In this document: positions 1 through 64,000 of the stretch, one piece after another | Position numbering within the stretch: position 1 is the stretch's first letter | Layout of the letters: each line of letters starts with the position of its first letter | NCBI GenBank assembly: GCA_937943625.1 | Contig: CALEAD010000005.1 | Location: 12,630 to 76,629, forward strand | Length of the DNA stretch: 64,000 nucleotides | Source of the DNA: an uncultured Anaerolineae bacterium | Lineage (GTDB): Bacteria; Chloroflexota; Anaerolineae; Promineifilales; Promineifilaceae | Reading direction: 5' to 3' | Program-made: the position numbers and the translations under genes | Notes under the pieces: model-generated | Seen by the model: only the letters and a program-made list of their open reading frames with translations | Database searches by the model: none | What the model was told of the DNA's origin: nothing

Positions 1-1200
1 GTGAAACCAATTCTTGTTATCGGCGCATCGGTGGGGGGAGCAACGGCCGCTAATCGGCTGGCGACTGCCGGCGTTCCGGTGGTCCTGCTGGAGAAGGATC
101 TCTCCTGGGTGAAACCGTGCGGGGGTGCGCTGCCGCCTGTGGCCTTTACGGAGTTCGATATTCCCCAATCGCTGATTTCGCGCAAGGTCTACAGGGCGCA
201 GGTTTACTCCCCGTCTAACCGCGTGACAGATTTTGCCGTTTCTGGGCTGCGCCAGCGGGAGACGGATTACATTGCCATGACCCGCCGCGAAGATCTAGAC
301 CCCTGGCTGCGCCAGCGTGCTGTACAGAATGGTGCGCAGCTAATCGAAGGACGCCTGACGGAGTTACAGGTGCGCGAAGATGGCGTGCGGGCAACCTATC
401 GTGACAAGGCCAGTGGGGAAAAGCACGAACTGTTTGTCGAAGCGGTCATTGGCGCCGATGGCGCTTACTCCACGACGGCGAAATTGTTGGGGCTGCCGCG
501 CCTGCCGCGCTGTATTGCTATTCAAGAGCGTATCTACCTGCCGGAAGAAAAAATGGCGCGGTGGCAGGAAACGGCCGCTCTCTATTTGGGTCATGATGTC
601 AGCCCTGACCTGTATGCCTGGGTGTTCCCCAAGCGAGATCACGTGGCGGTGGGCTGTGGCGCTGGCCCGGGCAACACAGCCGAAGCGCGCCGGCTCCTGG
701 CAAACCTGAAGCAGCGCCTGGCAGACGAGCTGGCAGGCGGGGAGGTTTTTCTGGAAGAGGCGCACGCTCTGCCGATGAGCCCACGCCCGCACATGGCTTT
801 TGATCGGGTGATGTTGGTGGGGGATGCAGCCGGGCTGGTTGTGCATACCTCTGGCGAGGGAATTTATTGGGCGATGAAAAGTGGTGATATGGCAGCCCGA
901 ACGCTGATTGAAAGTTTGCCCGATACGTCCGCGCGGGCGCTGCGCCGCTATGAAAAGCAGTGGTGGCGGGAGTACCGCACCATGTACCGCTTCTTGCGCT
1001 GGCTGCAAAAGTGGGGATATGGCAATGAGCGGCAGATGGAAGTGTTTACGGATATGTGCCGCAACAAGGATGTGCAGCAGTTAACTTTTGAGTCTTATAT
1101 GCACAAAAATATGACGCCTGTGCCCTGGTTGGCGCAGGTGCGGATGACAGCCGATATTCTGGCGGCGCAGATTCGTCATTATTTGCCACGGTGGGCCTGA
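1..1200 (+). CDS. bchP: Geranylgeranyl reductase (BchP/ChlP-family flavoprotein)
   Basis: 399-aa ORF. N-terminal FAD fold VIGASVGGATAANRLA..LLEK is followed by the KPCGGALP motif typical of ChlP/BchP. It heads a co-directional bch cluster. The GTG is at window base 1, so the true start could lie upstream. Confidence 0.8.
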   Translation: MKPILVIGASVGGATAANRLATAGVPVVLLEKDLSWVKPCGGALPPVAFTEFDIPQSLISRKVYRAQVYSPSNRVTDFAVSGLRQRETDYIAMTRREDLDPWLRQRAVQNGAQLIEGRLTELQVREDGVRATYRDKASGEKHELFVEAVIGADGAYSTTAKLLGLPRLPRCIAIQERIYLPEEKMARWQETAALYLGHDVSPDLYAWVFPKRDHVAVGCGAGPGNTAEARRLLANLKQRLADELAGGEVFLEEAHALPMSPRPHMAFDRVMLVGDAAGLVVHTSGEGIYWAMKSGDMAARTLIESLPDTSARALRRYEKQWWREYRTMYRFLRWLQKWGYGNERQMEVFTDMCRNKDVQQLTFESYMHKNMTPVPWLAQVRMTADILAAQIRHYLPRWA

Positions 1201-2048
1201 CGCAAATGCTTTCTTTTGTTTTCCCGGTCTTGTATGCGTTGTTTCTCTGGTGGTTCCTCACCGGGCTGATTATGGTTGTCTACGGCCGTTCGCCACGCAC
1301 GATTCGTCTCTTTTTTGCCGCCGCCACGCTGTTGATGCTGGTTGCCCTGGCGGGCATCTTTCTCACGCGCCAGGGCACTGAAAAGTGGCACATCTACACG
1401 GCCGTTACTTGCAGCATGATCCTTTGGGGATGGCACACCGGCAGTTATTACCTGGGGTTTGTGACCGGGCCAAAAGCAAAACGGCCGTTCTCCCGTCACC
1501 TCCCCCTCATGGCTCGTTTTCGCTTGGCACTGCGCGCCAGCTTGCATCACGAACTGCTTGTCGTGGCCTTCGTCATTCTCCTGGCTGCCCTCACCTGGGC
1601 GCAGGCCAACCGCTGGGGTTTCTGGCTCTTCCTGGCTATGTGGCTCATGCACCTCAGCGCCAAACTCAACATCTTTTTGGGTGTGCGCAACTTCTACATC
1701 GAATTCCTGCCCATGCACCTGCACCCCCTGGATCGGCTGCTCATTCGTCAGCCCGGCAATTTCTTCATGCCCATTTCCATCGTTCTTGCCGCCAGCATCG
1801 CACTGACCCTGGTCTACCACGCTATCATCCCTACCACAGATCCCGCACACTCAGCCGGCTACCTCTTTGTGGGCGTGATGATTGGCCTGGGCATTCTGGA
1901 GCACCTGCTGTTGGTGTTGCCCATTCCGGCTACTTTGTGGGGCTGGGGTGTGCGCCTTTTGCCACGCCACCCCCAAACGAGCGGCACGAGCGGACGAGCG
2001 CCCAACGCCACGCTGCGCGTTATTTCCAAGCAAATGATTGAAGGATAG
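1191..2048 (+). CDS. Polytopic membrane protein, PuhE/DUF3623-like (putative photosynthetic-complex assembly factor)
   Basis: 285-aa ORF with about 7 hydrophobic segments. LWWFLTG and SAKLNIFLGVRN motifs are recalled from the PuhE family. The start overlaps the bchP stop. Confidence 0.5.
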   Translation: MGLTQMLSFVFPVLYALFLWWFLTGLIMVVYGRSPRTIRLFFAAATLLMLVALAGIFLTRQGTEKWHIYTAVTCSMILWGWHTGSYYLGFVTGPKAKRPFSRHLPLMARFRLALRASLHHELLVVAFVILLAALTWAQANRWGFWLFLAMWLMHLSAKLNIFLGVRNFYIEFLPMHLHPLDRLLIRQPGNFFMPISIVLAASIALTLVYHAIIPTTDPAHSAGYLFVGVMIGLGILEHLLLVLPIPATLWGWGVRLLPRHPQTSGTSGRAPNATLRVISKQMIEG

Positions 2049-2052
2049 AGTG

Positions 2053-2940
2053 ATGATTTACGCTGCGCCTGTTTCTGTTTCAAAAGAGCCTGTCACGCGC
2101 GAGTGCGCGACGATGACCCTCCAGCGCCCCTTTGGGCCACTGGTGCTGGATGTATGGGAACCACGCGCCCCGGCAAAAGCGGCCAAAGATGCCGCGCCCG
2201 TCCTTCTCATTCATGGTTGGGGAGGAACAGGCAGCTACTGGCGTGAAACGGCGCGCTACCTCTCAGAAACGGTGAAAGTAATTGTGCCCGACCTGCCCGG
2301 TACGGGCCGTTCCCAGCCGGTAAACTGGCCACAGAACATATTCAACCAGGTAGATACCCTGGTATACATTCTGGATACGCTTGGCCTGGAGCGTGTGCAG
2401 GTGGTAGGCCACTCGATGGGAGGCGCAATGGCCGTGCTGCTGGCCGATGCCCGCCCACAGCAAGTTGAGCGCCTGGCGCTTACCTCCCTTTGCTTCTTCA
2501 TGAGTGAGGCGCAAGAAACGATGTATAAAACTGCCATGGGTATCTTCAAGCTAACCATGAGCTTTCGCCCTGGCTGGCTGGCGCAGGTTCCGCTTGTGCC
2601 ACAATTGGTTGCTACGCGCTACTTTTATCGCGTGCCCAAAGACAACGAGTTGCTGCGCCAGGGGTTGCGCGATTATCTGGAGCTAGATAAAGAAACGGCC
2701 GCTGCTTGCGCCGATGATGCTCCTAATCCCGTCATCACCCAGGCTGGGGCGCGCATTCGCGTTCCTACCCTGCTGATCGCCTGCCGCCAGGACCAGGTGA
2801 TGCCGGTGCAAAACGTAGACTTTACCCTGAAAACGATTCCCAATAGCCAGATACGCTGGATAGACAAGTGTGGGCATATGCCCATGGTGGAAAAACCGCA
2901 GGAGTATTTTGCTTTGTTACACGAATTTCTCCGCCTGTGA
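2053..2940 (+). CDS. Alpha/beta-fold hydrolase (BchO-like position in cluster)
   Basis: HGWGG oxyanion motif and GHSMGG nucleophile elbow. ATG 2053 is preceded by GAAGGA 7 nt upstream; the track ORF begins at TTG 2038. Confidence 0.65.
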   Translation: MIYAAPVSVSKEPVTRECATMTLQRPFGPLVLDVWEPRAPAKAAKDAAPVLLIHGWGGTGSYWRETARYLSETVKVIVPDLPGTGRSQPVNWPQNIFNQVDTLVYILDTLGLERVQVVGHSMGGAMAVLLADARPQQVERLALTSLCFFMSEAQETMYKTAMGIFKLTMSFRPGWLAQVPLVPQLVATRYFYRVPKDNELLRQGLRDYLELDKETAAACADDAPNPVITQAGARIRVPTLLIACRQDQVMPVQNVDFTLKTIPNSQIRWIDKCGHMPMVEKPQEYFALLHEFLRL

Positions 2941-3038
2941 GGGAAGTTGGTGCGTTGGTTGAGTTGGCGGGTCGGTTCATGAACCAACTCGCCAACCAGC
3001 CAACAAACCAACTAACCCAACAACAGCCATTGTGACCT

Positions 3039-6575: not shown

Positions 6576-6584
6576 GCGCGACTG

Positions 6585-9363: not shown

Positions 9364-9372
9364 GAGAGCGCT

Positions 9373-11797: not shown

Positions 11798-13162
11798 ATG
11801 TTATTGTCGCCAAAGACGCAAGCAGCACAATATCCGGTTACCGCACAGCAGCGACAGGGAAAACCAGTTTTTCCATTCACGGCCATTGTTGGCCAGGAAG
11901 AGCTGAAGCTGTCGCTGCTTTTGTGCGTGACCGACCCGACGATTGGTGGGGTGTTGGTCATGGGGCACCGCGGCACGGCCAAGAGTACGGCCGTGCGCTC
12001 GCTAGCCGCCCTTTTGCCTCCTATTCAGCAGGTGGTGGGCTGCCCCTACAACTGCGATCCCGCCGACCCGTCTCCCATTTGCCCTTACTGCACCACGCAC
12101 CCCGAAGCGGCCGTGCAGGCGACGCTGGGGCCTGTGCCGGTCGTAGATTTGCCCCTGGGCGCAACGGAAGACCGCCTCGCCGGTTCGCTAGACGTGGAGC
12201 GGGCGCTGGTGGAAGGGGTGCAGGCTTTTGCCCCTGGCCTGCTGGCGCGCGCCAATCGCGGCTTCCTCTACATTGACGAGGTGAACCTGTTGGAAGACCA
12301 CCTGGTAGATTTGCTGCTAGACGTAGCTGCCAGTGGCGTAAACGTGGTGGAGCGCGAAAGTATCAGCATTCGCCATCCGGCGCGCTTTGTGCTGGTGGGT
12401 AGTGGCAACCCGGAAGAGGGTGACCTGCGCCCGCAGCTTTTGGATCGCTTTGGCCTGCACGCGCGCATCACCACCATCACCAACGTGGAAAAGCGCGTAG
12501 AGATTGTGCGCCGCCGCCGCGCCTTTGATGCCGATCCGGTGGCTTTTGCCGCCGCCTGGGAGCCAGAGCAAGAGAAGTTGCGCCAGCAGCTTTTGCAGGC
12601 GCAGCAGCAGGTGCGCTACGTTGAATTGACGGACGAAACGATTGAAACGGCCGCTCACCTTTGCGTGCTCCTGGCGATTGACGGTCACCGTGGCGAGTTG
12701 ACGCTGTGCCGCGCTGCCGTGGCCCTGGCGGCGTTGGAAGGGCGCACGGCCACCACGCCGGACGATATTGCCCGCGTGGCCACGCTTTCTTTGCAGCACC
12801 GCCTGCGCAAAGACCCGTTGGAGAGCATCGGCGACGATGAGCGCGTGCGTCGCGCTGTGGCGCAGCTTTTGGCGACGCCTGAGGCGTTGCCTGAAATGCC
12901 GCCTTCCCTCCCACCAACGCCCCCTTCCCCGCCAGCGCCCCCTGTGCTGCCACCGGCTCCCGTGCCGGAGACGGTAACCGCTATTGCGCCGCCGCCTGCG
13001 CCGCTTGTTGATGTGGAAACGGCCGTTGCCCTGCCCCACTTCAGCGACAGCCTGCCCGAAGAAGCGCTGGCCGACCTGCTGGTAGAAGCTGCGCCGGACG
13101 AAACGACCCTCGATGACGAATTTGACGAGCTGTGGCATGATGGAGCAAAGGTGAGCGATTAG
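11798..13162 (+). CDS. bchI: Mg-chelatase ATPase subunit I with Pro-rich/acidic C-terminal tail
   Basis: FPFTAIVGQEELKLSLLL..GGVLVMGHRGTAKST Walker A and LYIDEVNLL Walker B. At 454 aa it is about 90 aa longer than a typical BchI core. Confidence 0.85.
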   Translation: MLLSPKTQAAQYPVTAQQRQGKPVFPFTAIVGQEELKLSLLLCVTDPTIGGVLVMGHRGTAKSTAVRSLAALLPPIQQVVGCPYNCDPADPSPICPYCTTHPEAAVQATLGPVPVVDLPLGATEDRLAGSLDVERALVEGVQAFAPGLLARANRGFLYIDEVNLLEDHLVDLLLDVAASGVNVVERESISIRHPARFVLVGSGNPEEGDLRPQLLDRFGLHARITTITNVEKRVEIVRRRRAFDADPVAFAAAWEPEQEKLRQQLLQAQQQVRYVELTDETIETAAHLCVLLAIDGHRGELTLCRAAVALAALEGRTATTPDDIARVATLSLQHRLRKDPLESIGDDERVRRAVAQLLATPEALPEMPPSLPPTPPSPPAPPVLPPAPVPETVTAIAPPPAPLVDVETAVALPHFSDSLPEEALADLLVEAAPDETTLDDEFDELWHDGAKVSD

Positions 13163-16300: not shown

Positions 16301-17189
16301 CCTCAGCGGCATCTTCCGTGACCTGTTCCACCACCAGACAGAGCTGCTGGACCAGGCGGTGCGCCTGGCCGCCATGGCCGACGAGCCGCTGGAGATGAAT
16401 TTTGTGCGCAAGCACGCCCTGGCGCAGGCCAAAGAGCTGAACCTTTCCCTCAGCGAGGCGGCCACGCGCGTCTTTTGCAATGCGCCCGGCTCCTACGGCG
16501 CCAACGTCAACCACCTGGTGGAAAGCTCTACCTGGGAGACGGATGACCAGATTAGCGACACCTTCCTCTCGCGCAAATCCTTTGCCTACGGCCCCAGCGG
16601 CGAGTGGCGCGGCGCGCGCGAAATCATGGAGCGTAGCCTGGCAACGGTAGAAGCGACCTTCCAGAACATTGACAGCTTTGAGCTGGGCATCAGTGACGTA
16701 GATCATTATTACGAGTACCTGGGTGGCGTGGCGAAGAGTGTGGAGAAGCTGCGGGGGAAACGGCCGTCTGTGCTGGTAGCCGACGCCATTTCTCTGGAAG
16801 ACCGCCTGGCCTCGCTAGAACAAATGGTGCGCCTGGAATCGCGCGCCAAGCTGCTCAACCCCAAGTGGCACGAGGCGATGCTGCATCACGGTTACGAGGG
16901 CGTGCGCGAAATCGAGCTGCGCGTAAACAACACCTACGGCTGGAGCGCCACTACCGAGGCGGTAGAAGGCTGGGTGTACGAAGACATTGCCGAGACCTTC
17001 TTGCTGGACGAGGAGATGCGCGCGCGCATGGCGAAGGCCAATCCCCACGCCACCGCTGGCATTGCCCGCCGTCTGTTGGAAGCCAATTCGCGCGGCTTCT
17101 GGGACGCCAGCGACGAGCTGATTGCGCAACTGCGCGAAATTTACGGCAACCTGGAAGACCAGCTAGAGGGTATCCACAGCCCGGCATAA
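13362..17189 (+). CDS. bchH: Mg-chelatase subunit H (CobN family)
   Basis: About 1275 aa with CobN/BchH-type sequence throughout. GGAG 8 nt upstream of ATG 13362; the track ORF begins at GTG 13353. Confidence 0.9.
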   Translation: MSVKMLYVTMDGGHNAALREAVRQIEQTHGISIQLALHTAPALRDPAMWQKLEQDAMQADFIFGCMIFGEEFVRPMQDILAKTNAPICFITSNPALIYMTRLGKFVLAPKNEDKEPGLVSKWMQKLRPKSNGRSEGHRQTSMITNLTKLMKYVPGKVRDLHTFIACHEFWLHSSPDNLARMMMMFIERYVPGYQGKLPVLDAIQYPNAALYHPDAPAPFSDGAEYRRWRAQNGRPVESWQGSVGILIHRAVILSGNTAHLDTLIRKLEAQGIEARTSYSALLDFRPSMQKFFAGNDGLPHVDLVMNGMGFPLVGGPAGSRPDDASAALKDLDVGYFDLVPLTFQHEDHWRGSDVGLLPMQAAMNIALPELDGAVEPVIYGGPAAGRDKFLPMEPELTLVAQRVTRRVRLRHKANAQKKIAIVLFNFPPNLGNAGTAMYLDVFQSLYRLLVEMRDAGYQIALPPDADALRQQVVEGNALQYGTDGNVAEHLSLEDYRRLFPHYTEIEPYWGYAPGELLNDGQRFYILGQHFGNVFIGIQPSFGYERDPMRLLMGKDAAPHHGFAAFYTWLDQMYDADAVIHFGTHGALEFMPGKQNGVSANCWPHRLLGRTPNFYYYCVNNPSEGSIARRRGAATLVSYMTPPLQQAGLYKGLRRLKDSLEAYHKRPSPELVADIQTQAEKLGIHVSVDGYSGGSLNGHTEAYIAALGHELIQVEHRMIPLGLHILGAPPSEDELVDILALVAAFNPVKHPQREAMLPTLPALIARGLGYDFQTLQESVKTDAAAQERWQQIEAIIHEAMRLFVNAAKETPLQTTAVDEFLQRSARIPPGLLANLWRWLADLMNRIIHDREVEGLLHVLEGGYILPSPGNDVVRNDAIVPTGRNIHALDPYRVPTPAAMTAAHALVRQMLQRLTAEQGSLPETIAMVLWGTDNLKSDCEGVAQCFDLLGVRPVEDELGNISRVALIPLAELGRPRIDIVMTLSGIFRDLFHHQTELLDQAVRLAAMADEPLEMNFVRKHALAQAKELNLSLSEAATRVFCNAPGSYGANVNHLVESSTWETDDQISDTFLSRKSFAYGPSGEWRGAREIMERSLATVEATFQNIDSFELGISDVDHYYEYLGGVAKSVEKLRGKRPSVLVADAISLEDRLASLEQMVRLESRAKLLNPKWHEAMLHHGYEGVREIELRVNNTYGWSATTEAVEGWVYEDIAETFLLDEEMRARMAKANPHATAGIARRLLEANSRGFWDASDELIAQLREIYGNLEDQLEGIHSPA

Positions 17190-26678: not shown

Positions 26679-27953
<1,275 letters not shown>

Positions 27954-35952: not shown

Positions 35953-35969
35953 ACGGCCGTTGGTGGGGC

Positions 35970-55405: not shown

Positions 55406-56248
55406 ATGCGCACAGATAGGTTAACCCAACCACCACTGGGGCCTGCACAACGGCCGTTACGCCGCACCACCCCTTTGCCCGTTGGCATTCTTCTGGCGGT
55501 GATGCTGCCCCTGATCCTGATGCCACTTTCTGCCATTTACCTCTTTGCCGGGCGGGGTGGGCTGGGTGAGTTTGTGCGTATGCTCAGCAGCCCCGACGCG
55601 CAATTTGCCCTGCGCTTTTCTTTGCTGATTGCCCTGGCAACGGCCGTGACCAACGGCTTTTTGGGCACCTATGCCGCCTATGTCCTTTCTAAATATGAAT
55701 TTCGCGGTCGTGAGGCGCTCATCGTAATCGTCAATTTACCGGTTGCCATTCCCACCGTCGTTGTGGGCACATCGTTGCTGCTGTTGTGGGGGCCAATTGG
55801 TTTGCTGGGGCAATTTCTCGATCCGTTAGGGTTGCAGCCGATGTTTGCCCCGGCGGGCGTGCTGCTGGCCCATCTGTTTGTAACCTTTCCCTACATGTTG
55901 GGGGCGGTGAAGCCGGTGCTGGATGAACTGGACGTGACCTACGAAGAGGCAGCCTACACCATTGGCGCCAGCCGCTGGCAAACCTTTCGCATGGTCATTT
56001 TGCCCGCGCTGAAAGGTGGGCTGTTTTCCGGGGCATTGCTCACCTTTGCCCATTCATTGGGTGAATTTGGCGCTACTGTTATTGTCAGCGGCAACTTGCG
56101 CTTGCGCACGCAGACAGCCCCTTTGTATATTTTTGCCCAATTCGAGGCAGGTAATCTGGAAACAGCTAATGCCGTAGCGTCCGTGTTGGCTACCCTGTCT
56201 TTTTTGCTCTTTTTTATTTTGATACGCTTTACGCAACGTAAAGTATAG
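55406..56248 (+). CDS. CysT/CysW-type ABC permease (single copy)
   Basis: 280 aa with 6 TM segments and an EAA-loop-like YEEAAYTIGASRWQTFRMVILP. Confidence 0.7.
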   Translation: MRTDRLTQPPLGPAQRPLRRTTPLPVGILLAVMLPLILMPLSAIYLFAGRGGLGEFVRMLSSPDAQFALRFSLLIALATAVTNGFLGTYAAYVLSKYEFRGREALIVIVNLPVAIPTVVVGTSLLLLWGPIGLLGQFLDPLGLQPMFAPAGVLLAHLFVTFPYMLGAVKPVLDELDVTYEEAAYTIGASRWQTFRMVILPALKGGLFSGALLTFAHSLGEFGATVIVSGNLRLRTQTAPLYIFAQFEAGNLETANAVASVLATLSFLLFFILIRFTQRKV

Positions 56249-56271: not shown

Positions 56272-58155
56272 ATGTCAATCACCCTCACAAATCTTGTTAA
56301 ATACTTTGGCCAGAACCTGGTGGTCAATAACGTCTCCCTGGAAGTGATGGATGGGGAGCTGTTTGTGCTGCTTGGCGGCAGCGGCAGCGGCAAAAGCACC
56401 ATTTTGCGCCTGATTTCCGGGCTAATTACCCCAGACGCGGGGCGCATTGCGCTAAACGGCCGTGACGTGACCGATCTGTCCGTGCAGGCGCGCGGCACCG
56501 GGTTTGTCTTCCAAAATTACTCCATCTTTCGCCACATGACTGTCAACGAGAACGTTGCCTTTGGCCTGCGCATTCGCCGCGTTCCGGTGGCAGAGCAGCG
56601 GCAGCGCTGTGCCGAACTGCTGGACCTGGTAGGATTGGCCGGGCTGGGTGAGCGGTACGCGGACCAGCTATCTGGCGGGCAGCAGCAGCGGGTGGCGCTG
56701 GCACGGGCGTTGGCTTACCAGCCGGCTGTGCTGCTGCTAGATGAACCGTTTGGCGCGCTAGACGTGAAGATTCGCGCCCAACTGCGCCACAGCCTGCGCG
56801 AAATTCAGCAGCGGTTGAAGGTGACGACCATTCTGGTGACGCATGACCAGGAAGAGGCGTTTGAGCTGGCAGATCGCATTGGCCTGATCCATCGTGGACG
56901 GCTGGTGGAAGTGGGGCCGCCAGAAAAGTTGTATCACCAGCCACGCACCGAGTTTACGGCAACCTTTATCGGTGGCGGCAATGTGCTGGTAGGGCGGCGC
57001 GAAGGGGAGTTTATCCGCCTGGGGCAGAGCCGGCTGCCCATGCCGCCTGATGCGCCCCCTCATGATGAGGGCGCGCCGGTGCGAATTCTCTTTCGCCCGG
57101 AAACGGCCGTTGCCCAACCAAACCCCTTTGACCCGCACGAAGGCATCACCCCCCTGGGTGTGGGCACCATTCGCGCGCAAATTTTTACCGGCCCGCTACA
57201 GCGGCTGGTGTTGGCGGTAGACGCGCTAGAGGGGACGCGGCAGCTTGTGCCCGAACCTGTCTATGGCCAGCGGCGCACGCGCATTGAGGTAGCCTTGCCC
57301 AGCCGGTATCAGGAGGGGGAGGGATTGGCCGTAGGGCAGCAGGTCTGGCTTGGCGTGCGCAACTTTCACGTGCTTGACCCGACTGGACTAAAATTGCTTA
57401 TCCACGCTGAAGGGTCGCCGGCAGGGACGGTGGCGGTTGCTTTTGGTTGCCTGTTGGCCCAGGCGGCTGGTGGGCCGGTGACGTTGCTGGGGTTGGCGGA
57501 GGGCGCGGATCAAATCACGGCCGTTGCAGAGCGGTTGAACCAGGCAGCGCATACCTGGATGCCTCACCTCCCCTTTTTAGAGACGCGCGTGCGCCAGGGA
57601 GATTTGCAGGAAATCAGGCGCGAAGCCCAGGAAGGGGACTATGAAATTGTGGTTCTGGGGCGCGTTGCCAGTGAGACGACGGACGGTCGGGAAACGGCCG
57701 TTGTGCGTCAACTCTTTTTTAGCATTGGCGTTTCTGTGCTTTATGTGACCGTCCCGCGGCCACAGGTGAAGCGCATTCTCATCTGTACAGCCGCGGGCGA
57801 GCCGGGTAAGCGGGACGTGATTTTTGGCGGCCGCGTAGCTCGCCGCACCGGCGCCCAGGTTACGGTCTTACACGTCCTCAATCCGCTGACTGACGACGCG
57901 GAGCGGCAGCGTGCGGAACGACATTTGCAGCAGGCGCAGGCCTCTCTGGCCTCCCTGGGCGTGCACAGCCAGATTGAACTGCGCGCAGGAAAGCCGCTGG
58001 AGATGATGCTGAAAACTGCGACGCAGGATTACGATCTATTGGTGATTGGTGCACCGGCGCCTCCTGCACCGCAACACCTCGTCTGGCCGGAGCTGACCGG
58101 CCAGGTTGTCAGCCAGGCCCCTTGCCCGGTGTTGGTTGTGCCCATGCAAGCATAA
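56272..58155 (+). CDS. CysA-like ABC ATPase fused to a TOBE-like domain and tandem universal-stress-protein domains
   Basis: Walker [10 protein letters not shown], signature LSGGQQQR and Walker B LLLDEP, then a TOBE-like region. Two USP-like modules follow (EIVVLGRV.. and [10 protein letters not shown]...CPVLVVP). The track ORF starts at GTG 56248. Confidence 0.7.
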
Positions 58156-58202: not shown

Positions 58203-59354
58203 TTATTCTCTGGGCAAGGGCAGGGTAAAGTGAAAGCGGCTGCCCTGTCCCTCCCCCTCGCTTTCTGCCCAGATGCGCCCACCGTGTGCTTCTACCAGGT
58301 GACGAGCAATGGTCAGGCCAATGCCGCTGCCGCCACTGGCGCGTGCGCGCGACTTGTCCACGCGGTAGAAGCGCGTGAACAGATGGGGCAAATGCGCGGC
58401 CGGAATGCCCACGCCGGTGTCGCTGACCGTGATACAGAGGGCGCCGGGTTGGGCAACGGCCGTTACCATCACCTCACCCCCTGCAGGCGTATATTGCAGC
58501 GCGTTGCCAATCAGGTTAATCAACACCTGGGCAATGCGGTCGCCATCAGCCGACACAACCGACAGAGCGGGCGCCGGCTGTACGTGCAGCGCTACCCCCT
58601 TGTCTGCAAACTGACGGTGCAGGCGATTGGCGATCTCTGCTAACAGCACACCTATATCTACTGGCTGGCAGCGCAATTCATACGCGCCCGCCTCCACGCG
58701 GCTCAGCTCTTGCAAGTCGGCTACCAATTGCTGCAAACGCGCCGCTTCCTGGTGAATTTGTTGGAATGTGGTGGCGTCGGCGGGCAGCACGCCATCCATC
58801 AATCCTTCCATGGAGCCTTTGATGACGGTCAGTGGCGTGCTGAGTTCGTGGCTGACGTCGCCAATAAGCTGGCGACGCATGGTTTCTGCTGTAGCAAGCT
58901 GGCGCGCCATCTGGTTGAAGCTGTGTGCCATTTGCCCAATTTCGTCTAATTCCGCAAGGGGGCGATTGGGCAGGGGCAGGATACGGCCGTAATTGCCCCG
59001 GGCAATATCGCGGCTGGCTTCCATAATCTGGCGCACGGGTTGCACAATGCGCCGCGTCATCAGGGCGCTCAGCGCCAGGGCAATCAGGCTGGCGACGCCC
59101 AAAGCAATTAGAGTGGCTTCGGTGACGGCCGTTCTAAAATTCACCACCAGGTCACTTGCCAGGTCACGGTCGGCCATCAGGTGCTGATTGCCCAAACTCA
59201 GCATCGCCATCTCCATGGCCTCCAGGTGGCGGGCAAAGGCGCGGGGCAGGGTTAGCTCCATAGCCAGCACCAGCACAGCCGCTGCCAGCAGCACCACTGC
59301 CAGATAGGAGAGGAAGAGCTTCCAGCCCAATCGTCGTCTGAAGGTGTTGCGCAT
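58203..59354 (-). CDS. Sensor histidine kinase (2 TM + HAMP), CusS/CopS-like context
   Basis: H-box VSHELSTPL plus DTGVGI and GSGIGLTI. Downstream of an OmpR regulator in a copper-type gene neighbourhood. Confidence 0.75.
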   Translation of the reverse strand: MRNTFRRRLGWKLFLSYLAVVLLAAAVLVLAMELTLPRAFARHLEAMEMAMLSLGNQHLMADRDLASDLVVNFRTAVTEATLIALGVASLIALALSALMTRRIVQPVRQIMEASRDIARGNYGRILPLPNRPLAELDEIGQMAHSFNQMARQLATAETMRRQLIGDVSHELSTPLTVIKGSMEGLMDGVLPADATTFQQIHQEAARLQQLVADLQELSRVEAGAYELRCQPVDIGVLLAEIANRLHRQFADKGVALHVQPAPALSVVSADGDRIAQVLINLIGNALQYTPAGGEVMVTAVAQPGALCITVSDTGVGIPAAHLPHLFTRFYRVDKSRARASGGSGIGLTIARHLVEAHGGRIWAESEGEGQGSRFHFTLPLPRE

Positions 59355-59430: not shown

Positions 59431-60111
59431 CTAATCGCTAACCCCTTCAAATCGGTATCCCACGCCGCGTACGGTGACAATGCCGTGATGAGGCCCCAAT
59501 TTTTGCCGCACGTGTCCCAGGTGCACGTCTACCACGCGAATTTCGCCAAAAAAATTTTGGCCCCACACCTGCTCTAACAATTGTTCGCGGCTGAGAACCA
59601 TGCCGCGATGCTCGGCCAATGTTTTTAGCAGGTCAAACTCAGTGGTGGTTAGCTCTACCTCCTGGCCAGCGGCCCAAACGCGGCGGGCAGCAAGGTCAAT
59701 GCGCAAGTGGGCAAACTGCATCACCCGGCTTTCGGGCAGGTTGCCGCTTTGCAGGCGCCGCAGCGCCGCTTTGATGCGTGCCACCAACTCGCGCGGGCTG
59801 AATGGCTTGGTCAGGTAATCGTCTGCGCCAACCGCCAGCCCTACCAGCTTGTCTGTCTCCTCGCTGCGGGCGGTGAGCAAAATCACGTACACGTCTGACT
59901 CGCGCCGAAGCTGGGCCAATAGTTCCAGCCCATCCATGCCGGGCAGCATGATGTCTAGCACCAGCAGGTCGGGCTGGAAGGCGCGGCACAGTTGCAAAGC
60001 GATACGGCCGTCTACGGCCGTTTTCACCTCGTACCCTTCTGGCCGTAAATAGGCCGTTACCAGGTTCAGGATGTTCTGCTCGTCGTCAACCACCAGGATT
60101 TTAGCGCTCAT
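59431..60111 (-). CDS. OmpR-family response regulator
   Basis: ILVVDDEQ...LDIMLPGMDG receiver plus a winged helix (TTTEFDLLKTLA...GVGYRF). Confidence 0.8.
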   Translation of the reverse strand: MSAKILVVDDEQNILNLVTAYLRPEGYEVKTAVDGRIALQLCRAFQPDLLVLDIMLPGMDGLELLAQLRRESDVYVILLTARSEETDKLVGLAVGADDYLTKPFSPRELVARIKAALRRLQSGNLPESRVMQFAHLRIDLAARRVWAAGQEVELTTTEFDLLKTLAEHRGMVLSREQLLEQVWGQNFFGEIRVVDVHLGHVRQKLGPHHGIVTVRGVGYRFEGVSD

Positions 60112-60322: not shown

Positions 60323-61558
60323 CTAATCGCTCACTTCGCTTAATGCCTGCAAAAAAGCCAATAGCTGGGCGCGTTCGCGGGGAGAAAGGTGCAGGGGTTC
60401 CAGCTGGCTGTGCCCGGCAGGGGCGGGTGGGGCCAGGTGATAGTGCATAATCACCTCTTGCAAGGTGGCAAACTGGCCGGCGTGCATGTAGGGCGGCCGT
60501 TCGGCCACGTTGCGCAGGCTGGGGGGCTTAAAGGCGCGCAGTAGTTCTTCCCCTTCGCTGAGAATGAAGCGCAGTTCGGCGCACTGCTGCGGCGCGGCGT
60601 CGCTGTAGGGGCTGAGGCAGTTGAACTCATCGGCCAGCACGAGCTGCGCGCCAGCAGCGCGGCCGGTGTCTTGGGGTAAACCGGGCGCGTCAGGAACGGC
60701 CGTGTTGTGAAAATCATTGTCTGTCAACAGCGGCCCATTATGACACTGAATGCAGTTTGCCCGGTCGATAAACAGGCGCAGCCCTGCTACCTCATCGGCT
60801 GTCAGGCTGGCGCGCATGGTGCGGGTGTCGCCTTCTAACAACGCCTGCACGTAGGCATCAAAGCGTGAGGGGCCGGGCATGATTGTGCGCTCAAAGGCGG
60901 CAATTGCCTTGCCCATGTTTACGTAGATGCGTGTTACCGCTTCCTGCGCGGCGGGTGTCATGGCGTCCCAGGCGGCGCGAGCAGCAGGGTCTGCTGCTGG
61001 CCCGGCGCTGGCGGGCACACCGCTCAGGTCGGGTAGGGGGCCAAAGAGCGCCTCGTATTCGCTGCGGTAGTGTGCGGCAATCAGGTGGGCGTACTGTGCG
61101 CGCGTGCCGCCATGCTCGACTGGGTTTTCTAGCGGTCCTAGCGCCTGTGCCCACAGGCTGTCTTTACGGCCGTCCCAAAATAGCCAGGGGCTATAGGCCA
61201 TGCCCGCAATTGGCATTGTGCGCCGGTCTGTCGTGCCTATGCCCTGTGCCAGTGGTAGCCCGTCCTGGAAGCCCAGTTCCGGCAGGTGGCATGTGCCACA
61301 AGCAACCCGGCCATTGTTGCTGAAGCGCGCATCAAAGAACAGGCGTTCTCCCAGGGCAATGGCGCGGGGGTCGTCCGCGTAGCGGTTGGAGGGGTCAGGG
61401 GGGAGTGGGGGCAGGCTGCCCAGCCATAGGGTGCGCAGCATGGCAACTTCTGCCTCTGTCCAGCGGTCGGCGCTGCGCGGCCCGAAGATAAATATGGCCG
61501 TAGCCAGGCTAATTGTGGCCAGCGCGGCCAGGAGGATGAGCGTGCGTTTTGCTTGCAT
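60323..61558 (-). CDS. Di-haem cytochrome c peroxidase / MauG-family protein
   Basis: Signal or TM anchor, and two CxxCH sites (CGTCH, CIQCH) with CCP-family spacing. Confidence 0.75.
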   Translation of the reverse strand: MQAKRTLILLAALATISLATAIFIFGPRSADRWTEAEVAMLRTLWLGSLPPLPPDPSNRYADDPRAIALGERLFFDARFSNNGRVACGTCHLPELGFQDGLPLAQGIGTTDRRTMPIAGMAYSPWLFWDGRKDSLWAQALGPLENPVEHGGTRAQYAHLIAAHYRSEYEALFGPLPDLSGVPASAGPAADPAARAAWDAMTPAAQEAVTRIYVNMGKAIAAFERTIMPGPSRFDAYVQALLEGDTRTMRASLTADEVAGLRLFIDRANCIQCHNGPLLTDNDFHNTAVPDAPGLPQDTGRAAGAQLVLADEFNCLSPYSDAAPQQCAELRFILSEGEELLRAFKPPSLRNVAERPPYMHAGQFATLQEVIMHYHLAPPAPAGHSQLEPLHLSPRERAQLLAFLQALSEVSD

Positions 61559-61609: not shown

Positions 61610-62080
61610 TCAACGGCCGTAACTGGCAAATATCTCTATGTTGCCATGACGGTCAAACGTCAGCACGTCATACGGTTCGGTGCGGCCGTCGGGCGATTCC
61701 ATGCCTGGGGAGCCAAGCGGCATACCGGGCACAGCCAGGCCAATAATATCGGGGCGTTTGGCCAACAGGCGGGTTACTTCGGCGGCGGGAATATGTCCTT
61801 CTAAAACGTAGCCATCCACGATGGCAGTGTGGCAGGAATAGAGCTGTGGGGGAATCTGGTACTGCTGCCGGATGGCCAGGCCATCGCGCACGGGAATTTC
61901 GGCAACATGAAACCCTTCCTTTTTCATGTACTCCATCCAATCGCCACAGCAGCCTCAGGTGGGTGGGTAATAAACTTGCACGACTGGCGCGCCAAGGTCT
62001 GCGGGCTGCGTTTGTTCGGCGGAGCAGGCCACCAGTATGGGCAGCGCCAGCAGCAGCAGTAAGTGAACAATTCGGGTCAT
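61610..62080 (-). CDS. CopG/DUF411-family lipoprotein gene interrupted by an in-frame TGA (candidate selenocysteine codon, or a pseudogene)
   Basis: AAGGAG 6 nt upstream of ATG 62080. Signal peptide with lipobox ILVAC. The reading frame runs VVQVYYPPT-TGA-GCCGDWMEYMKKEGF and continues into the track ORF 61610-61936, which carries the DUF411 motifs (SCHTA, VPGMPLGSPGME). The TGA is at 61955-61957. Confidence 0.5.
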
Positions 62081-62141: not shown

Positions 62142-62693
62142 CTAGCCGCCCAGCAGAATGTTGAACGTAATGGTGTCTTTTTGCCCGGCGGCTTCGATTG
62201 TAAATGTCACTTCCCACCAACCGCTCATCTGAAAGCGCAGCCCTTCTACCAGGTAACGGCCGTTGCCCAGGTATTCGGTCACTTGCGGGCGTGTGGGCAG
62301 GCCGTGCCCGTGTTGGGGCATACCGCCGCTAACGGTAATCGTCGCATTTTCGACTGGTTGGCCATCGGCCGTTTCGACATACAGCGTCCAGCTGTGCATC
62401 TGATTAATGGCAACGGGGTCCAGGTCGTTGGTGAACGAGACCTGGAACAGCCCCTGATCGCTGAGGCGGCTTGTGGATGTGTTCAGGTCAGCAGGGGTGG
62501 CACTGCTCATCATACCGTGCATCATGCCCATGCCTCCCATTGGGCCGCGTAGCGGGGTTGCGGGCATTGTTTCTGCCATGCGCTGGTGCATGAGGGTTGG
62601 CCCCATGGCGGGCAGAAGGAAGAGGAGGAGGGCAACGGTAAGAACGGCCGTTGTCAGCGCAGTTACAAGGATGGTGAGTGCTGTTTTTTGCAT
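62142..62693 (-). CDS. Membrane-anchored Met/His-rich, YtkA/FixH-like protein
   Basis: N-terminal TM segment, an [11 protein letters not shown] Met-rich stretch and a C-terminal beta-rich domain with GMPQHGHG. Sits in a copper-handling context. Confidence 0.55.
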
Positions 62694-62828: not shown

Positions 62829-62856
62829 TTCAACCCCTGCGTATCTCAGGTATAAT
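62829..62856 (+). promoter_or_regulatory. Candidate sigma70-type promoter (TTCAAC-16 nt-TATAAT)
   Basis: TATAAT at 62851-62856 ends only 8 nt before GTG 62865 of the open-ended membrane ORF. This implies a leaderless or near-leaderless transcript if the promoter is real. Confidence 0.25.
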
Positions 62857-62864
62857 ATCCCCCT

Positions 62865-64000
62865 GTGAACCAATATCGCTTAAAAGCGCGCCCCTTTCTG
62901 GCAACGGCCGTTGCTTACCTGCTGCTCGTCGTTGCCATGACCTGGCCGCTGACGCTGAATCTGACACAGCGCCTGGCCGGCAACAACATAGACAACTGGC
63001 TGTATGTCTGGAACAATTGGTGGCTGCGCCAGGTGATTGCGCATGAGGAGTCGCTGTTCTTCACCCCTTACCTCTTTGCGCCGCAGGGCGTCAGCCTGAT
63101 TGCGCACGCCAACTCTTTTCTCAATTCTTGGCTGGCTTACCTGCCTTGGCAATGGTGGGGGCAGGTGGCGGCGCATAACCTGGTGTTCTTGTTTGGCCTG
63201 TGGCTGGGCAGCCTGGGTATGTTTTGGCTGGTGTGGGAGATGAACGGCCGTTTTTGGGGAGCGTTTTTGGCCGGGTTTGTCTACAGCTTTGCCCCCTATC
63301 ACCTGACGCAGGTGCTTGCGCACGATCACCTGGGTGCCATTCACTGGTGGCCCTTTTTTGTGCTGTTCTGGCGACGGCTGTGGCTGCCTGAGGCAGAGCT
63401 GTTGCCTGCGGCGCGTTGGCGTGCGGCCCTGGGCGCGGGTTTGTTTGCGGCGCTGACGCTGTGGGCAGGCATTCAACTGGTTGTGTTGCTGCTGGCCTGG
63501 ACGGCCGTTTACACCCTCTGGCTACTGCTGGCAAAGCGGCACGCCGGGGAACGTCCCGCGCTGGTGCGCCTGATGCCTCATGTGGCGCTGGTGGGGGCAA
63601 CGGCCGTTTTGCTCACTGCGCCCATGCTCATCCCCAAGCTCCAACGCTGGCGCGAGCTGGCCGACACAGCCGCCGCGCTCAACCTGCACGCCATTTCCCA
63701 AACCGATCTGCTGGCCTACTGGATTCCCCCGACCTATCACCCCTTCTGGGGCGACCAGGTAGTGTTCATTTACCAGCGGTTTGTAGATAACCAGGCCTCC
63801 ATGCCCTACCTGAGATATGTGGCGCTGTGCCTGGCGCTGTTGGCGCTGTGGCGGCGGCGCGCCGAGGCTACTTTTTGGGCGCTCAGTGGCCTGTTATGGG
63901 TCACGCTGGCGGCCGGTTCCATCTTGCGCTTCAATGGCACAACCTACCCCGACGTGGTACTGCCTTACACCTGGCTGGGCCGCCTTTTTCCCATCTCTGC
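62865..64000 (+). CDS. Polytopic membrane protein, 5' part (open at window end); GT-C/YfhO-like guess only
   Basis: Not in the supplied track. My hand translation from GTG 62865 finds no stop through 64000 (378 codons). It has many hydrophobic segments and is Trp-rich (NWLYVWNNWWLRQV). Confidence 0.5.
   Translation, partial: MNQYRLKARPFLATAVAYLLLVVAMTWPLTLNLTQRLAGNNIDNWLYVWNNWWLRQVIAHEESLFFTPYLFAPQGVSLIAHANSFLNSWLAYLPWQWWGQVAAHNLVFLFGLWLGSLGMFWLVWEMNGRFWGAFLAGFVYSFAPYHLTQVLAHDHLGAIHWWPFFVLFWRRLWLPEAELLPAARWRAALGAGLFAALTLWAGIQLVVLLLAWTAVYTLWLLLAKRHAGERPALVRLMPHVALVGATAVLLTAPMLIPKLQRWRELADTAAALNLHAISQTDLLAYWIPPTYHPFWGDQVVFIYQRFVDNQASMPYLRYVALCLALLALWRRRAEATFWALSGLLWVTLAAGSILRFNGTTYPDVVLPYTWLGRLFPIS

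Follow-up and report, generated by a model that had tools for sequence, protein, structure and literature searches.

Gene content of the window and catalogue of palindrome copies

The 64,000-bp stretch of DNA analysed here, referred to as the window (from the 117-kb contig CALEAD010000005.1 of an uncultured Anaerolineae bacterium, GC content 59.4%), carries a bacteriochlorophyll cluster (bchP, DUF3623, bchF, bchC, bchX, bchY, bchZ, pucC, bchI, bchH and bchD), an 11-gene NDH/Mbh-like cluster, sugar-modification genes and several two-component systems. Throughout these genes it contains the eight-letter palindrome ACGGCCGT, in 106 exact copies or about one per 600 bases. This octamer is a frame-blind, substitution-driven and strongly maintained DNA-level word, found on all DNA resident in the clade to which the window belongs. 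Annotation by open reading frame (ORF), GC content at third codon positions (GC3) and Pfam matches yielded 50 confident window genes with 55 kb of coding sequence, and 95 of the copies lie within these.

All copies of ACGGCCGT are listed below, without strand, as the word is palindromic; the sign after a gene gives the strand of that gene. Codon phase and encoded peptide follow, together with the state of the site in orthologous loci of sister species (L035, L045) and other relatives (L040 to L044).

1282..1289, DUF3623 (+), phase 1, YGR; kept in L035
1398..1405, DUF3623 (+), phase 0, TAV; kept in L035
1481..1488, DUF3623 (+), phase 2, KRPF; kept in L035
3479..3486, BchF (+), phase 2, QRPS; kept in L035
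3498..3505, BchF (+), phase 0, TAV; kept in L035
3777..3784, BchC (+), phase 1, NGR; kept in L035
3932..3939, BchC (+), phase 0, TAV; kept in L035
5460..5467, BchX (+), phase 0, TAV; kept in L035
7444..7451, BchY (+), phase 1, HGR; kept in L035
7748..7755, BchY (+), phase 2, SRPF; kept in L035
7999..8006, BchZ (+), phase 0, TAV; kept in L035
8315..8322, BchZ (+), phase 1, YGR; kept in L035
8838..8845, BchZ (+), phase 2, SRPL; kept in L035
9334..9341, BchZ (+), phase 0, TAV; kept in L035
9452..9459, PucC (+), phase 1, NGR; kept in L035
10669..10676, PucC (+), phase 0, TAV; kept in L035
11628..11635, intergenic
11987..11994, BchI (+), phase 0, TAV; kept in L035, L040, L041 and L044; ACC>ACG, synonymous, against motif-less L042
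13019..13026, BchI (+), phase 0, TAV; kept in L035
13753..13760, BchH (+), phase 1, NGR; kept in L035; KKGTS in motif-less L042
14056..14063, BchH (+), phase 1, NGR; kept in L035; EQGMP/ERGTP in relatives
15353..15360, BchH (+), phase 2, KRPS; kept in L035
15801..15808, BchH (+), phase 0, TAV; changed in L035 (the sole changed site)
16760..16767, BchH (+), phase 2, KRPS; kept in L035
17522..17529, cytochrome b561 (+), phase 2, KRPS; kept in L035
18397..18404, BchD (+), phase 0, TAV; kept in L035
19136..19143, BchD (+), phase 1, NGR
19741..19748, BchD (+), phase 0, TAV
19939..19946, class-V aminotransferase (+), phase 0, TAV
20644..20651, class-V aminotransferase (+), phase 0, TAV
20751..20758, class-V aminotransferase (+), phase 2, KRPW
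20984..20991, class-V aminotransferase (+), phase 1, NGR
22219..22226, Ig-like protein (-), phase 1, DGR
23371..23378, Ig-like protein (-), phase 1, NGR
23666..23673, Ig-like protein (-), phase 0, TAV
24563..24570, M42 peptidase (-), phase 1, NGR
24644..24651, M42 peptidase (-), phase 1, NGR
25030..25037, IMPase (-), phase 1, HGR
25306..25313, IMPase (-), phase 1, NGR
25507..25514, IMPase (-), phase 1, YGR
26488..26495, PAP2 (-), phase 2, ERPF
26984..26991, AdoHcyase (-), phase 2, VRPF
27818..27825, AdoHcyase (-), phase 2, ERPF
29355..29362, GT2 (-), phase 0, TAV
29436..29443, GT2 (-), phase 0, TAV
30700..30707, DegT (-), phase 0, TAV; core of the perfect 16-mer 30696-30711
31060..31067, DegT (-), phase 0, TAV
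31447..31454, LysM (-), phase 0, TAV
31618..31625, LysM (-), phase 0, TAV
32086..32093, LysM (-), phase 0, TAV
32913..32920, GAF histidine kinase (-), phase 0, TAV
33117..33124, GAF histidine kinase (-), phase 0, TAV
33585..33592, GAF histidine kinase (-), phase 0, TAV
34107..34114, GAF histidine kinase (-), phase 0, TAV
34557..34564, GAF histidine kinase (-), phase 0, TAV
34686..34693, GAF histidine kinase (-), phase 0, TAV
35222..35229, ORF 34958-35446 (-), no Pfam match, phase 1, NGR
35953..35960, intergenic
36165..36172, ORF 35970-36278 (+), no Pfam match, phase 0, TAV
36845..36852, ORF 36819-37304 (-), no Pfam match, phase 2, KRPL
37041..37048, ORF 36819-37304 (-), no Pfam match, phase 1, NGR; kept in L045
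37366..37373, DUF3095 (+), phase 0, TAV; kept in L045
37433..37440, DUF3095 (+), phase 1, NGR; kept in L045
37504..37511, DUF3095 (+), phase 0, TAV; kept in L045
38041..38048, DUF3095 (+), phase 0, TAV; kept in L045
38060..38067, DUF3095 (+), phase 1, NGR; kept in L045
39333..39340, dCache histidine kinase (+), phase 0, TAV; kept in L045
39627..39634, dCache histidine kinase (+), phase 0, TAV; kept in L045
40119..40126, dCache histidine kinase (+), phase 0, TAV; kept in L045
40612..40619, dCache histidine kinase (+), phase 1, NGR; kept in L045
41876..41883, pentapeptide-repeat protein (+), phase 1, DGR; kept in L045
42430..42437, NuoJ-like ORF 42086-42628 (+), phase 2, ERPL; kept in L045
43146..43153, NuoL (+), phase 0, TAV; core of the perfect 18-mer 43141-43158; kept in L045
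43791..43798, NuoL (+), phase 0, TAV; kept in L045
44265..44272, NuoL (+), phase 0, TAV; kept in L045
44534..44541, NuoL (+), phase 2, QRPL; kept in L045
44898..44905, NuoM (+), phase 1, NGR; kept in L045
45617..45624, NuoM (+), phase 0, TAV; kept in L045
45800..45807, NuoM (+), phase 0, TAV; kept in L045
46606..46613, NuoA (+), phase 0, TAV; kept in L045
47460..47467, NuoC (+), phase 0, TAV; kept in L045
49089..49096, NuoH (+), phase 1, NGR; kept in L045
49404..49411, NuoH (+), phase 1, NGR; kept in L045
51523..51530, sCache histidine kinase (+), phase 1, NGR; kept in L045
52550..52557, sCache histidine kinase (+), phase 2, TRPL; kept in L045
53165..53172, hybrid histidine kinase (+), phase 0, TAV; core of the perfect 16-mer 53161-53176; kept in L045
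55450..55457, ABC permease (+), phase 2, QRPL
55640..55647, ABC permease (+), phase 0, TAV
56456..56463, ABC ATPase-Usp (+), phase 1, NGR
57103..57110, ABC ATPase-Usp (+), phase 0, TAV
57517..57524, ABC ATPase-Usp (+), phase 0, TAV
57694..57701, ABC ATPase-Usp (+), phase 0, TAV
58456..58463, HAMP histidine kinase (-), phase 0, TAV
58983..58990, HAMP histidine kinase (-), phase 1, YGR
59125..59132, HAMP histidine kinase (-), phase 0, TAV
60004..60011, response regulator (-), phase 1, DGR
60014..60021, response regulator (-), phase 0, TAV
60696..60703, cytochrome c peroxidase (-), phase 0, TAV
61166..61173, cytochrome c peroxidase (-), phase 1, DGR
61613..61620, DUF411 (-), phase 1, YGR
62256..62263, YtkA-like (-), phase 1, NGR
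62644..62651, YtkA-like (-), phase 0, TAV
62904..62911, ORF 62865-63998 (+), no Pfam match, phase 0, TAV
63244..63251, ORF 62865-63998 (+), no Pfam match, phase 1, NGR
63501..63508, ORF 62865-63998 (+), no Pfam match, phase 0, TAV
63600..63607, ORF 62865-63998 (+), no Pfam match, phase 0, TAV

Locally, the DUF3095 gene (37294-38457) is the most heavily loaded: its 1.16 kb hold five copies, two of them forming the pair at 38041 and 38060, and the sister species has kept all five.

Abundance and null models

The original prediction, made by hand from the window sequence, had counted roughly 105 exact octamers against a zero-order expectation of about 2; an exact search gave 106 against a computed 1.79, and all 13 start coordinates quoted in that prediction are present in the exact list. 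Dinucleotide-preserving shuffles (n = 100) contained 1.18 copies on average and 4 at most, and a Markov-3 model predicted 3.6 copies, or 1.4 when the motif copies were masked. The excess over the Markov-3 and shuffle nulls is thus about 30- to 80-fold, within the range given for highly iterated palindromes (HIPs; 15- to 300-fold, one per 0.35-1 kb). By far the commonest 8-mer of the window is ACGGCCGT, comparable words being only its own overlaps, and the next non-overlapping 8-mer, TGGCGCTG, has 43 copies.

Codon-aware nulls were applied to the coding sequence of the 50 annotated genes, and the excess survived them. Permutation of synonymous codons within each gene, with the protein kept, gave 12.2 +/- 3.1 copies (maximum 24), and permutation of whole codons 2.3 +/- 1.5, compared with 95 observed. 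From the first of these values, the excess at the purely synonymous level is about 8-fold, and an additional excess of about 5-fold sits within the protein sequences themselves.

Different copies have unrelated 38-nt flanks (mean identity 32%, maximum 61%); the copies therefore do not constitute a mobile element, and they lie in unique DNA rather than in a few repeated mobile sequences. A dispersed repeat of the REP/MITE type was rejected on the same grounds, as only 8-10 nt are common to the copies and at least 90% of them lie inside genes. The window copies are preceded by A (position -1) in 70% and followed by T (position +8) in 67% of cases. The 10-mer AACGGCCGTT with both flanks accounts for 49 of the 106 copies (46%), so that the predicted extension of most copies to this form was an overstatement, while the perfect 18-mer palindrome GGGAAACGGCCGTTTCCC at 43141-43158 and the perfect 16-mers around ACGGCCGT at 53161-53176 and 30696-30711 were found as described. 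GGAAACGGCCGTTTCC occurs three times in the window.

Codon phase, encoded peptides and saturation

In genes of both strands, the copies are distributed over codon phases 0, 1 and 2 as 51, 30 and 14, in agreement with the claimed phase independence, and encode TAV, [NHDY]GR and xRP[FSLW], respectively. The codons of these peptides are nearly fixed: 51 of the 53 TAV tripeptides are written ACG-GCC-GTN (15% expected from codon usage), 30 of the 36 [NHDY]GR tripeptides are written xAC-GGC-CGT (about 4% expected; CGT makes up 11% of Arg codons elsewhere), and 14 of 18 xRP positions followed by a T-initial codon are encoded by ACGGCCGT. Taken over all phases, 95 of 107 peptide-compatible positions (89%) carry the word. 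The force proposed to act on the DNA word itself, independent of frame and overriding codon usage, is evident from this codon fixation in TAV and [NHDY]GR.

The peptides are themselves over-represented, TAV occurring 53 times versus 10.2 +/- 3.2 in amino-acid shuffles (5-fold) and [NHDY]GR 36 times versus 11.1 +/- 3.4 (3-fold), with no enrichment of the reversed control peptides VAT and RG[NHDY] in the window proteins. Together with motif-less orthologues that have other residues at the sites, these numbers show protein sequence to be partly overridden, as had been proposed. The recurrent peptide words on which that proposal was built could all be located: SNGRSE, QNGRPV, HKRPSP, QTTAVD and GKRPSV are present in BchH, and GETAV in BchX, NuoL, the DUF3095 protein, the DegT/RfbH-like enzyme and the dCache kinase.

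Placement along genes is uniform (Kolmogorov-Smirnov p = 0.2). Twelve genes are devoid of the word where a Poisson distribution predicts 11, and the idea that word-free genes represent foreign islands was rejected for want of any signal. Outside clear genes are two strictly intergenic copies (11628 and 35953, both named as spacer copies in the original prediction) and five copies in short ORFs without Pfam support.

Conservation and turnover of sites

Syntenic loci of relatives were obtained by exact-protein look-ups; a contig scan had given only distant bchH loci, at 55% identity or less. In the two sister-species loci L035 and L045, at about 87% DNA identity, 49 of 50 aligned copies were intact, or 50 of 51 with a more sensitive alignment, compared with a conservation baseline of 32-39% for all 8-mers and 8 of 31 for control palindromes with 75% GC. 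In relatives at about 75% nucleotide identity, 33-50% of copies were common, versus 12-14% of background 8-mers, and private copies of ACGGCCGT were present in each deeper lineage. The states of orthologous 8-mers are bimodal, with 93 exact matches, 2 words differing at one position and 25 with 2-5 differences.

Orthologue alignments revealed no indels at gains or losses of ACGGCCGT sites; copies arise by substitution, via both synonymous and non-synonymous routes. The synonymous route is exemplified by STAVR in BchI (ACC to ACG), the amino-acid-changing route by BchH in comparison with motif-less orthologues (KKGTS to SNGRS, EQGMP or ERGTP to QNGRP, HSGVD to TTAVD) and by BchD (RADVV to RTAVI). 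Accessory insertions found only in the sister species (L035, L045) carry ACGGCCGT at normal density.

Two one-off words of the window, ACGGCCGC at 53247 and ACGGTCGT at 45065, have the full word at the orthologous position in L045. They exemplify recent gains or losses by a single transition.

Recognition logic, spacing and restriction avoidance

In 184 kb of non-redundant DNA of the clade, 302 copies of ACGGCCGT were counted versus 4.2 expected (about 70-fold). One-off variants are in clear excess at position 1/8 only (G 2.7-fold, T 3.7-fold, C 1.2-fold; in mobile elements G 4.6-fold and T 4.1-fold), which defines CGGCCG as a strict core with outer A/T preferred. Inner one-off variants range from 0- to 1.5-fold, except for C>T at position 2 (ATGGCCGT/ACGGCCAT), which is at 2.2-fold in chromosomes and at 1.2-fold in mobile elements. 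A signature of the very-short-patch (VSP) repair type was looked for among these variants and not seen, as T-variants are not depleted.

A at -1 and T at +8 are each found in about 65-70% of copies, whatever the codon phase and in non-coding DNA as well. The flanks on the two sides show no correlation (0.49 complementary pairs versus 0.50 expected), and farther out no complementarity is selected. The independence of the half-site flanks favours a symmetric protein that recognises the word as two half-sites in duplex DNA, and speaks against a function as hairpin or cruciform; the perfect palindromes of 16-18 nt are then the tail of independent half-site preferences, and the idea of an extended palindrome or hairpin was rejected.

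Spacing in the window is slightly under-dispersed, with a coefficient of variation (CV) of 0.80 versus 0.98 +/- 0.09 for random placement (p = 0.011). The CV was below the random mean in 11 of 12 loci (Stouffer z = -2.6), some of which are orthologous and hence not independent. Close pairs at 10 and 19 nt were discarded as a signal, since 3 pairs within 20 nt compare with about 3.4 under a Poisson model.

Outside full copies, the window contains 57 CGGCCG (42 expected) and 454 GGCC (462 expected). In contrast, 20 of the 64 hexamer palindromes are significantly depleted, several of them also in relatives (including L041, L044, L166 and L167). Observed versus expected numbers in the window are 0/21 for GGGCCC, 3/34 for CTGCAG, 0/15 for ACGCGT, 44/133 for GGCGCC and 14/65 for CAGCTG; AAGCTT, GAGCTC, GGATCC, ATCGAT and GATATC are absent from it. 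This avoidance of 6-bp palindromes, in contrast with the enriched octamer, suggests heavy restriction-modification pressure in the lineage. The octamer itself does not behave as a restriction-modification target, as CGGCCG and GGCC are not avoided and ACGGCCGT is enriched in hosts and phages.

Distribution across the clade

Seven loci of relatives, with GC contents of 50-60%, each have ACGGCCGT as their top palindrome:

L035, sister species, about 88% nucleotide identity, 1.30 copies per kb
L040, BchH 84%, 1.31 copies per kb
L041, BchH 78%, 1.47 copies per kb
L044, BchH 71%, Ardenticatenaceae metagenome-assembled genome (MAG) GCA_020634525.1, 1.17 copies per kb
L166, AdoHcyase-anchored, GCA_020634375.1, 2.30 copies per kb
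L167, AdoHcyase-anchored, GCA_016713795.1, 1.98 copies per kb
L168, AdoHcyase-anchored, GC 50%, 1.51 copies per kb

A metagenome scan yielded ACGGCCGT-rich contigs with GC contents of 43-64%. This wide range, and the abundance of the word in many relatives, mark it as a deep signature of the whole lineage that depends little on base composition. Independent assemblies from NCBI, ENA, JGI and Logan have the word at orthologous positions. The closest homologues of the window BchH and AdoHcyase are MAG proteins; next come proteins with the labels Ardenticatenaceae, Anaerolineae/Anaerolineales or Chloroflexota; the BchH of Chloroflexus is only 55% identical. The hosts of ACGGCCGT are thus Ardenticatenaceae-like Chloroflexota and not the cyanobacteria by which HIPs are taxonomically defined.

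Essentially no copies were found in 33 bchH loci of Chloroflexus, proteobacteria and Gemmatimonadaceae, nor in L042/L043 (BchH 72%, GC 64%). The latter (JGI 3300005965 Ga0081527_100015; ENA ERZ27249355) have neighbouring genes unlike those of the window, and represent either a lineage that never had the word or a horizontal bch transfer between motif-rich and motif-free lineages.

Phages and mobile elements

IMG/VR contigs were found by scanning for close pairs of ACGGCCGT, an ascertainment that has to be borne in mind for their densities of 4.1 (L050), 3.7 (L061), 3.6 (L114), 3.2 (L057) and 3.0 (L046) copies per kb, which lie above that of the host. Overall, phage and mobile-element contigs have 2-4 copies per kb, at or above host density. 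L061, L114, L046 and L136 encode ParA/ParB, an anti-repressor, integrase, DnaC-like loader, transglycosylase and FtsK-like proteins, and by this gene content are probably mobile elements or prophage-like; in mobile-element genes 39 of 44 compatible positions are realised, with 24 TAV versus 2.2 expected. L309 and L314 carry true tailed-phage modules (terminase large subunit, portal and major head protein), and their structural genes hold 26 copies in 12.8 kb, with 26 of 32 compatible positions realised and 14 TAV versus 1.8 expected.

Resident viruses are subject to the same force or exploit it, which places a new constraint on any model. The richness of phages and mobile elements in the word excludes a role as restriction target, and that of phage structural genes is awkward for an origin purely by uptake bias, unless these are recombining prophages. 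L160 is a further motif-rich IMG/VR locus, and L289 and L293 are near-copies within this set of loci.

Search for a cognate methyltransferase

The approximately 50 window genes were scanned with Pfam, and six-frame ORFs were screened with regular expressions for the motifs of C5 and N4/N6 methyltransferases in 357 kb of motif-rich loci and then in 636 kb of metagenome loci. DPPY and SPPY matches were discarded, as they had no Pfam domain. Two further hits, a type IIG Eco57I-like enzyme (L275) and a fragment (L180), were dismissed as cognate methyltransferases. The motif-rich metagenome contig L234 (10143-12251, WBZL01000229.1) encodes a C5 cytosine methyltransferase of 347 residues with M.HaeIII as best full-length match in the PDB, directly 5' of a restriction endonuclease of the BsuBI/PstI family. 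Homologues with 60-71% identity are found in Ardenticatenales, Oscillochloris, cyanobacteria and Blastocatellia, and homologues with 60-66% in cyanobacteria, Oscillochloris, Blastocatellia and Betaproteobacteria. Given its endonuclease partner, the wide spread of its homologues and the strong avoidance of CTGCAG in the clade, this enzyme was rejected as the cognate methyltransferase, and the pair probably accounts for the CTGCAG avoidance rather than for ACGGCCGT.

Comparison with known systems

The cyanobacterial HIP1 (GCGATCGC) and ACGGCCGT are both GC-rich perfect octamer palindromes found about once per 0.35-1 kb, at a density near 1 per kb. Both occur in every reading frame as well as in spacers, and both spread by substitution and not by insertion. 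The sites of both are better conserved among related genomes than control palindromes are, as described for HIP1 (Xu et al. 2018, PMC5861425), and the one-off variants of both cluster at the two outermost bases around a strict 6-bp core, CGATCG in HIP1 and CGGCCG in ACGGCCGT; the bias of HIP1 variants to the outer bases was reported along with the presence of cognate methyltransferases (Elhai 2015, PMC4390886). With conservation over controls, substitution without indels and outer-base variants, three published HIP1 diagnostics are reproduced, and the likeness to HIP1 drawn in the original prediction holds: ACGGCCGT agrees with HIPs in every sequence-level criterion examined and departs from them in the taxonomic one. 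The two differ in sequence and phylum, and as ACGGCCGT has no GATC core, a Dam-type enzyme cannot be involved. For HIP1 the cognate methyltransferase, methylation and an effect on transformation are known, the core being modified by a solitary C5 methyltransferase and methylated copies raising transformation and recombination (10.1101/2024.09.10.611283; 10.64898/2026.06.24.733823), whereas a methyltransferase for ACGGCCGT is predicted by analogy. Its strong presence in phage structural genes is, in turn, documented here.

HIP abundance has been reported in cyanobacteria only, with GGGATCCC, TCGATCGA and CAGGCCTG as the only alternate words listed (PMC5861425), of which CAGGCCTG, from Synechococcus PCC 6312, has a GGCC centre like ACGGCCGT. 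These alternate HIPs show that the phenomenon can switch words between lineages; they are moderately enriched, belong to single cyanobacterial lineages and are said to have a matching methyltransferase (PMC4390886), whereas ACGGCCGT is family- or order-wide in Chloroflexota. A literature search found no earlier description of ACGGCCGT as an iterated palindrome, consistent with what the original prediction had supposed, nor of any such element in Chloroflexota. We therefore regard it as the first clear counterpart of HIP1 outside cyanobacteria, with a new word, a new phylum and newly documented enrichment in phages.

Three other classes of DNA word share features with ACGGCCGT. DNA uptake sequences (DUS) and uptake signal sequences (USS) likewise occur about once per kb, in genes in several frames, produce recurrent peptides, are common to related species and are substitution-driven. 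They are asymmetric 9-12-mers, frequently arranged as inverted pairs in terminators, and the DUS receptor is ComP; ACGGCCGT, in contrast, is a perfect palindrome, rare in spacers (two strictly intergenic copies), with flank pairing no higher than chance. Chi, another over-represented octamer, identifies self DNA to an enzyme that processes DNA. The known Chi sites are without exception asymmetric and co-oriented with replication; Chi is strand-skewed and about 10-fold rarer, and ACGGCCGT is without polarity. Restriction-modification targets are short palindromes too, and ACGGCCGT contains the sites of EagI/XmaIII (CGGCCG) and HaeIII (GGCC), but such targets are avoided, as are the 20 hexamer palindromes in the window, whereas ACGGCCGT is enriched and is carried, not shed, by phages.

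Interpretation and rival explanations

On this evidence, ACGGCCGT rather probably belongs with the highly iterated palindromes of the HIP type, as a DNA word spread through a whole Ardenticatenaceae-like clade of Chloroflexota. New copies arise in place through point substitutions, and a complete copy is then held almost invariant; nearly every peptide-compatible position carries the word, and the process is common to chromosomal genes, insertions, mobile elements and phage structural genes. CGGCCG is strictly required, the outer A/T preferred and a further A/T weakly preferred, with independent half-sites. The word would be read in double-stranded DNA by a symmetric (dimeric) sequence-specific host factor. 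By analogy with HIP1 (G-CGATCG-C, M.Ssp6803I/DmtC), the reader would most probably be a solitary cytosine methyltransferase specific for CGGCCG or ACGGCCGT. The modified word would constitute a dense, rather evenly spaced mark of resident DNA, which may be used in DNA handling, be it uptake or recombination of conspecific DNA, methyl-directed repair or nuclease attenuation. Selection, possibly with the help of a repair ratchet, would hold the density near 1.5-2 per kb, and phages and mobile elements of these hosts would acquire the mark too. A more far-reaching reading, put forward tentatively as one of several possibilities, is that these bacteria have evolved, independently of cyanobacteria, a genome-wide CGGCCG-core watermark, coupled to methylation, that distinguishes resident from foreign DNA in uptake, recombination or repair and is copied by phages and mobile elements.

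Several observations weigh against the HIP-type explanation. Neither the window nor about 1 Mb of motif-rich DNA yielded a candidate reader (methyltransferase, Vsr, MutH-like or other), the only C5 methyltransferase seen being that of an ordinary PstI/BsuBI-type restriction-modification pair, and the spectrum of C>T variants has no clear deamination or VSP signature. Spacers are not enriched in the word, with 2 to 7 of the 106 copies outside clear genes. Conservation alone cannot tell selection for a function from a repair bias that restores sites. The function of HIP1 is itself still debated, and the analogy is therefore of limited mechanistic weight. Coverage, finally, comprised the 64-kb window and samples of about 20 kb per relative.

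A serious rival is a neutral ratchet without cellular function, in which context-specific repair (very-short-patch-like, or the methyl-directed mismatch repair proposed by Elhai) converts near-matches and restores damaged copies, so that abundance is a by-product. Such a process would readily leave bimodal orthologous states with almost no one-off intermediates, no excess of inner one-off words despite 302 parent copies, 89% saturation of peptide-compatible positions, uniform placement in genes and a Poisson number of word-free genes; it would also act in insertions, mobile elements and phage capsid genes, and the signature is denser in the presumably less constrained genes of mobile elements. 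A Vsr-type drive, however, predicts depletion of the cytosine T-variants, and ATGGCCGT/ACGGCCAT stand at 2.2-fold; unconstrained spacers are no richer than genes, spacing is slightly more even than random, and new copies often need 2-5 substitutions, amino-acid changes included. Known VSP effects, as at CCWGG in E. coli, are only few-fold, compared with an excess of about 70-fold here. As the full explanation the ratchet is somewhat doubtful, but it may also contribute to the origin of copies. 

Recognition by the competence machinery, with accumulation through biased uptake and recombination as for the DUS of Neisseria and the USS of Pasteurellaceae, appears unlikely. It would explain 1-2 copies per kb in all frames with tolerant protein positions reshaped, copies conserved among related species and the presence of ACGGCCGT on accessory DNA exchanged within the clade; but a palindrome with 2 to 7 copies outside genes is unlike the known asymmetric 9-12-mers, which are often paired at terminators, and phage structural modules as rich as the host would fit only if they belong to prophages recombining in the population. 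HIP1 has lately been proposed as an uptake sequence (bioRxiv 10.64898/2026.06.24.733823; 10.1101/2024.09.10.611283), and its behaviour has been called reminiscent of Chi by Kamoku and Nielsen (10.1101/2024.09.10.611283). A Chi-like self mark that attenuates a helicase-nuclease (of the AddAB, RecBCD or AdnAB type) or a defence system, so that DNA dense in the word is spared and recombined, and that resident phages and mobile elements mimic, would agree with the 2-4 copies per kb on their contigs, at or above host level, and with the lack of avoidance of ACGGCCGT amid strong palindrome avoidance elsewhere. Mobile elements could, however, equally owe their higher density to weaker protein constraint, and a palindrome without polarity differs from the asymmetric Chi sites co-oriented with replication; this reading is quite improbable. 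We consider it very unlikely that the word is the binding site of a nucleoid-structuring protein, in line with the role in chromosome architecture proposed for HIP1 by Xu et al. 2018: half-site logic suggestive of a dimeric reader, mildly even spacing and conserved copies would be expected of such a site, but small phage genomes are equally rich in ACGGCCGT and a candidate protein was not found.

A motif at the protein or RNA level, a dispersed mobile element or an assembly artefact are contradicted by the data and hardly credible. Recurrent TAV, NGR and RP peptides do exist, and every transcript contains ACGGCCGU because ACGGCCGT is palindromic; yet one DNA word gives three peptides in three phases, it is the synonymous codon choice that is fixed, and neither Rfam nor tRNA features were found in the window. 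Against a mobile element stand the unrelated flanks and the lack of indels at sites, and against an artefact the recurrence of the word at orthologous positions in NCBI, ENA, JGI and Logan assemblies.

The function of HIP1 has been open for about 30 years, with all previous studies limited to a single phylum. An independent replicate is now provided by an unrelated word from another phylum that bears the same evolutionary signature. Any gene that tracks the word in both phyla, for instance one for a solitary methyltransferase, a nuclease, a competence protein or an enzyme of nicking or repair, would become a strong candidate for the machinery. If the watermark reading is true, HIP-type watermarks would be a convergent general strategy, and the genes common to both systems would reveal the HIP machinery. 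DNA from these organisms is predicted to have an unusual EagI/HaeIII digestion or methylation pattern. As ACGGCCGT reshapes proteins (TAV is 5- to 11-fold over-represented), it matters for phylogenetics and selection tests on these genomes, and it is a very strong signature for binning and host assignment of Chloroflexota MAGs, plasmids and phages.

Neighbouring genes

The photosynthesis cluster at 1-19752 of the window has the order bchP, DUF3623/puhE-like, hydrolase, bchF-C-X, HHH protein, bchY-Z, pucC, small ORFs, bchI, bchH, cytochrome b561 and bchD. This order is proteobacteria-like, yet found in a MAG of Ardenticatenaceae-like Chloroflexota; reaction-centre genes are absent from the window. 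In the sister species, a PhdYeFM/PIN toxin-antitoxin pair specific to it lies between the cytochrome b561 gene and bchD (L035, 18423-19151), and a HAD hydrolase, DUF5131 and an ORF of 382 residues, likewise sister-specific, lie between DUF3095 and a response regulator (L045, 2871-5751). The NDH-1/Mbh-like cluster (NuoJ-like, K, L, M, A, B, C, D and H) extends from 42086 to 49828. Its 'NuoD' also matches the NiFe-hydrogenase large-subunit family, and the cluster may encode an energy-converting hydrogenase-related complex rather than a classical complex I. The orthologous locus L045 has an extra 4Fe-4S ferredoxin gene after nuoH.

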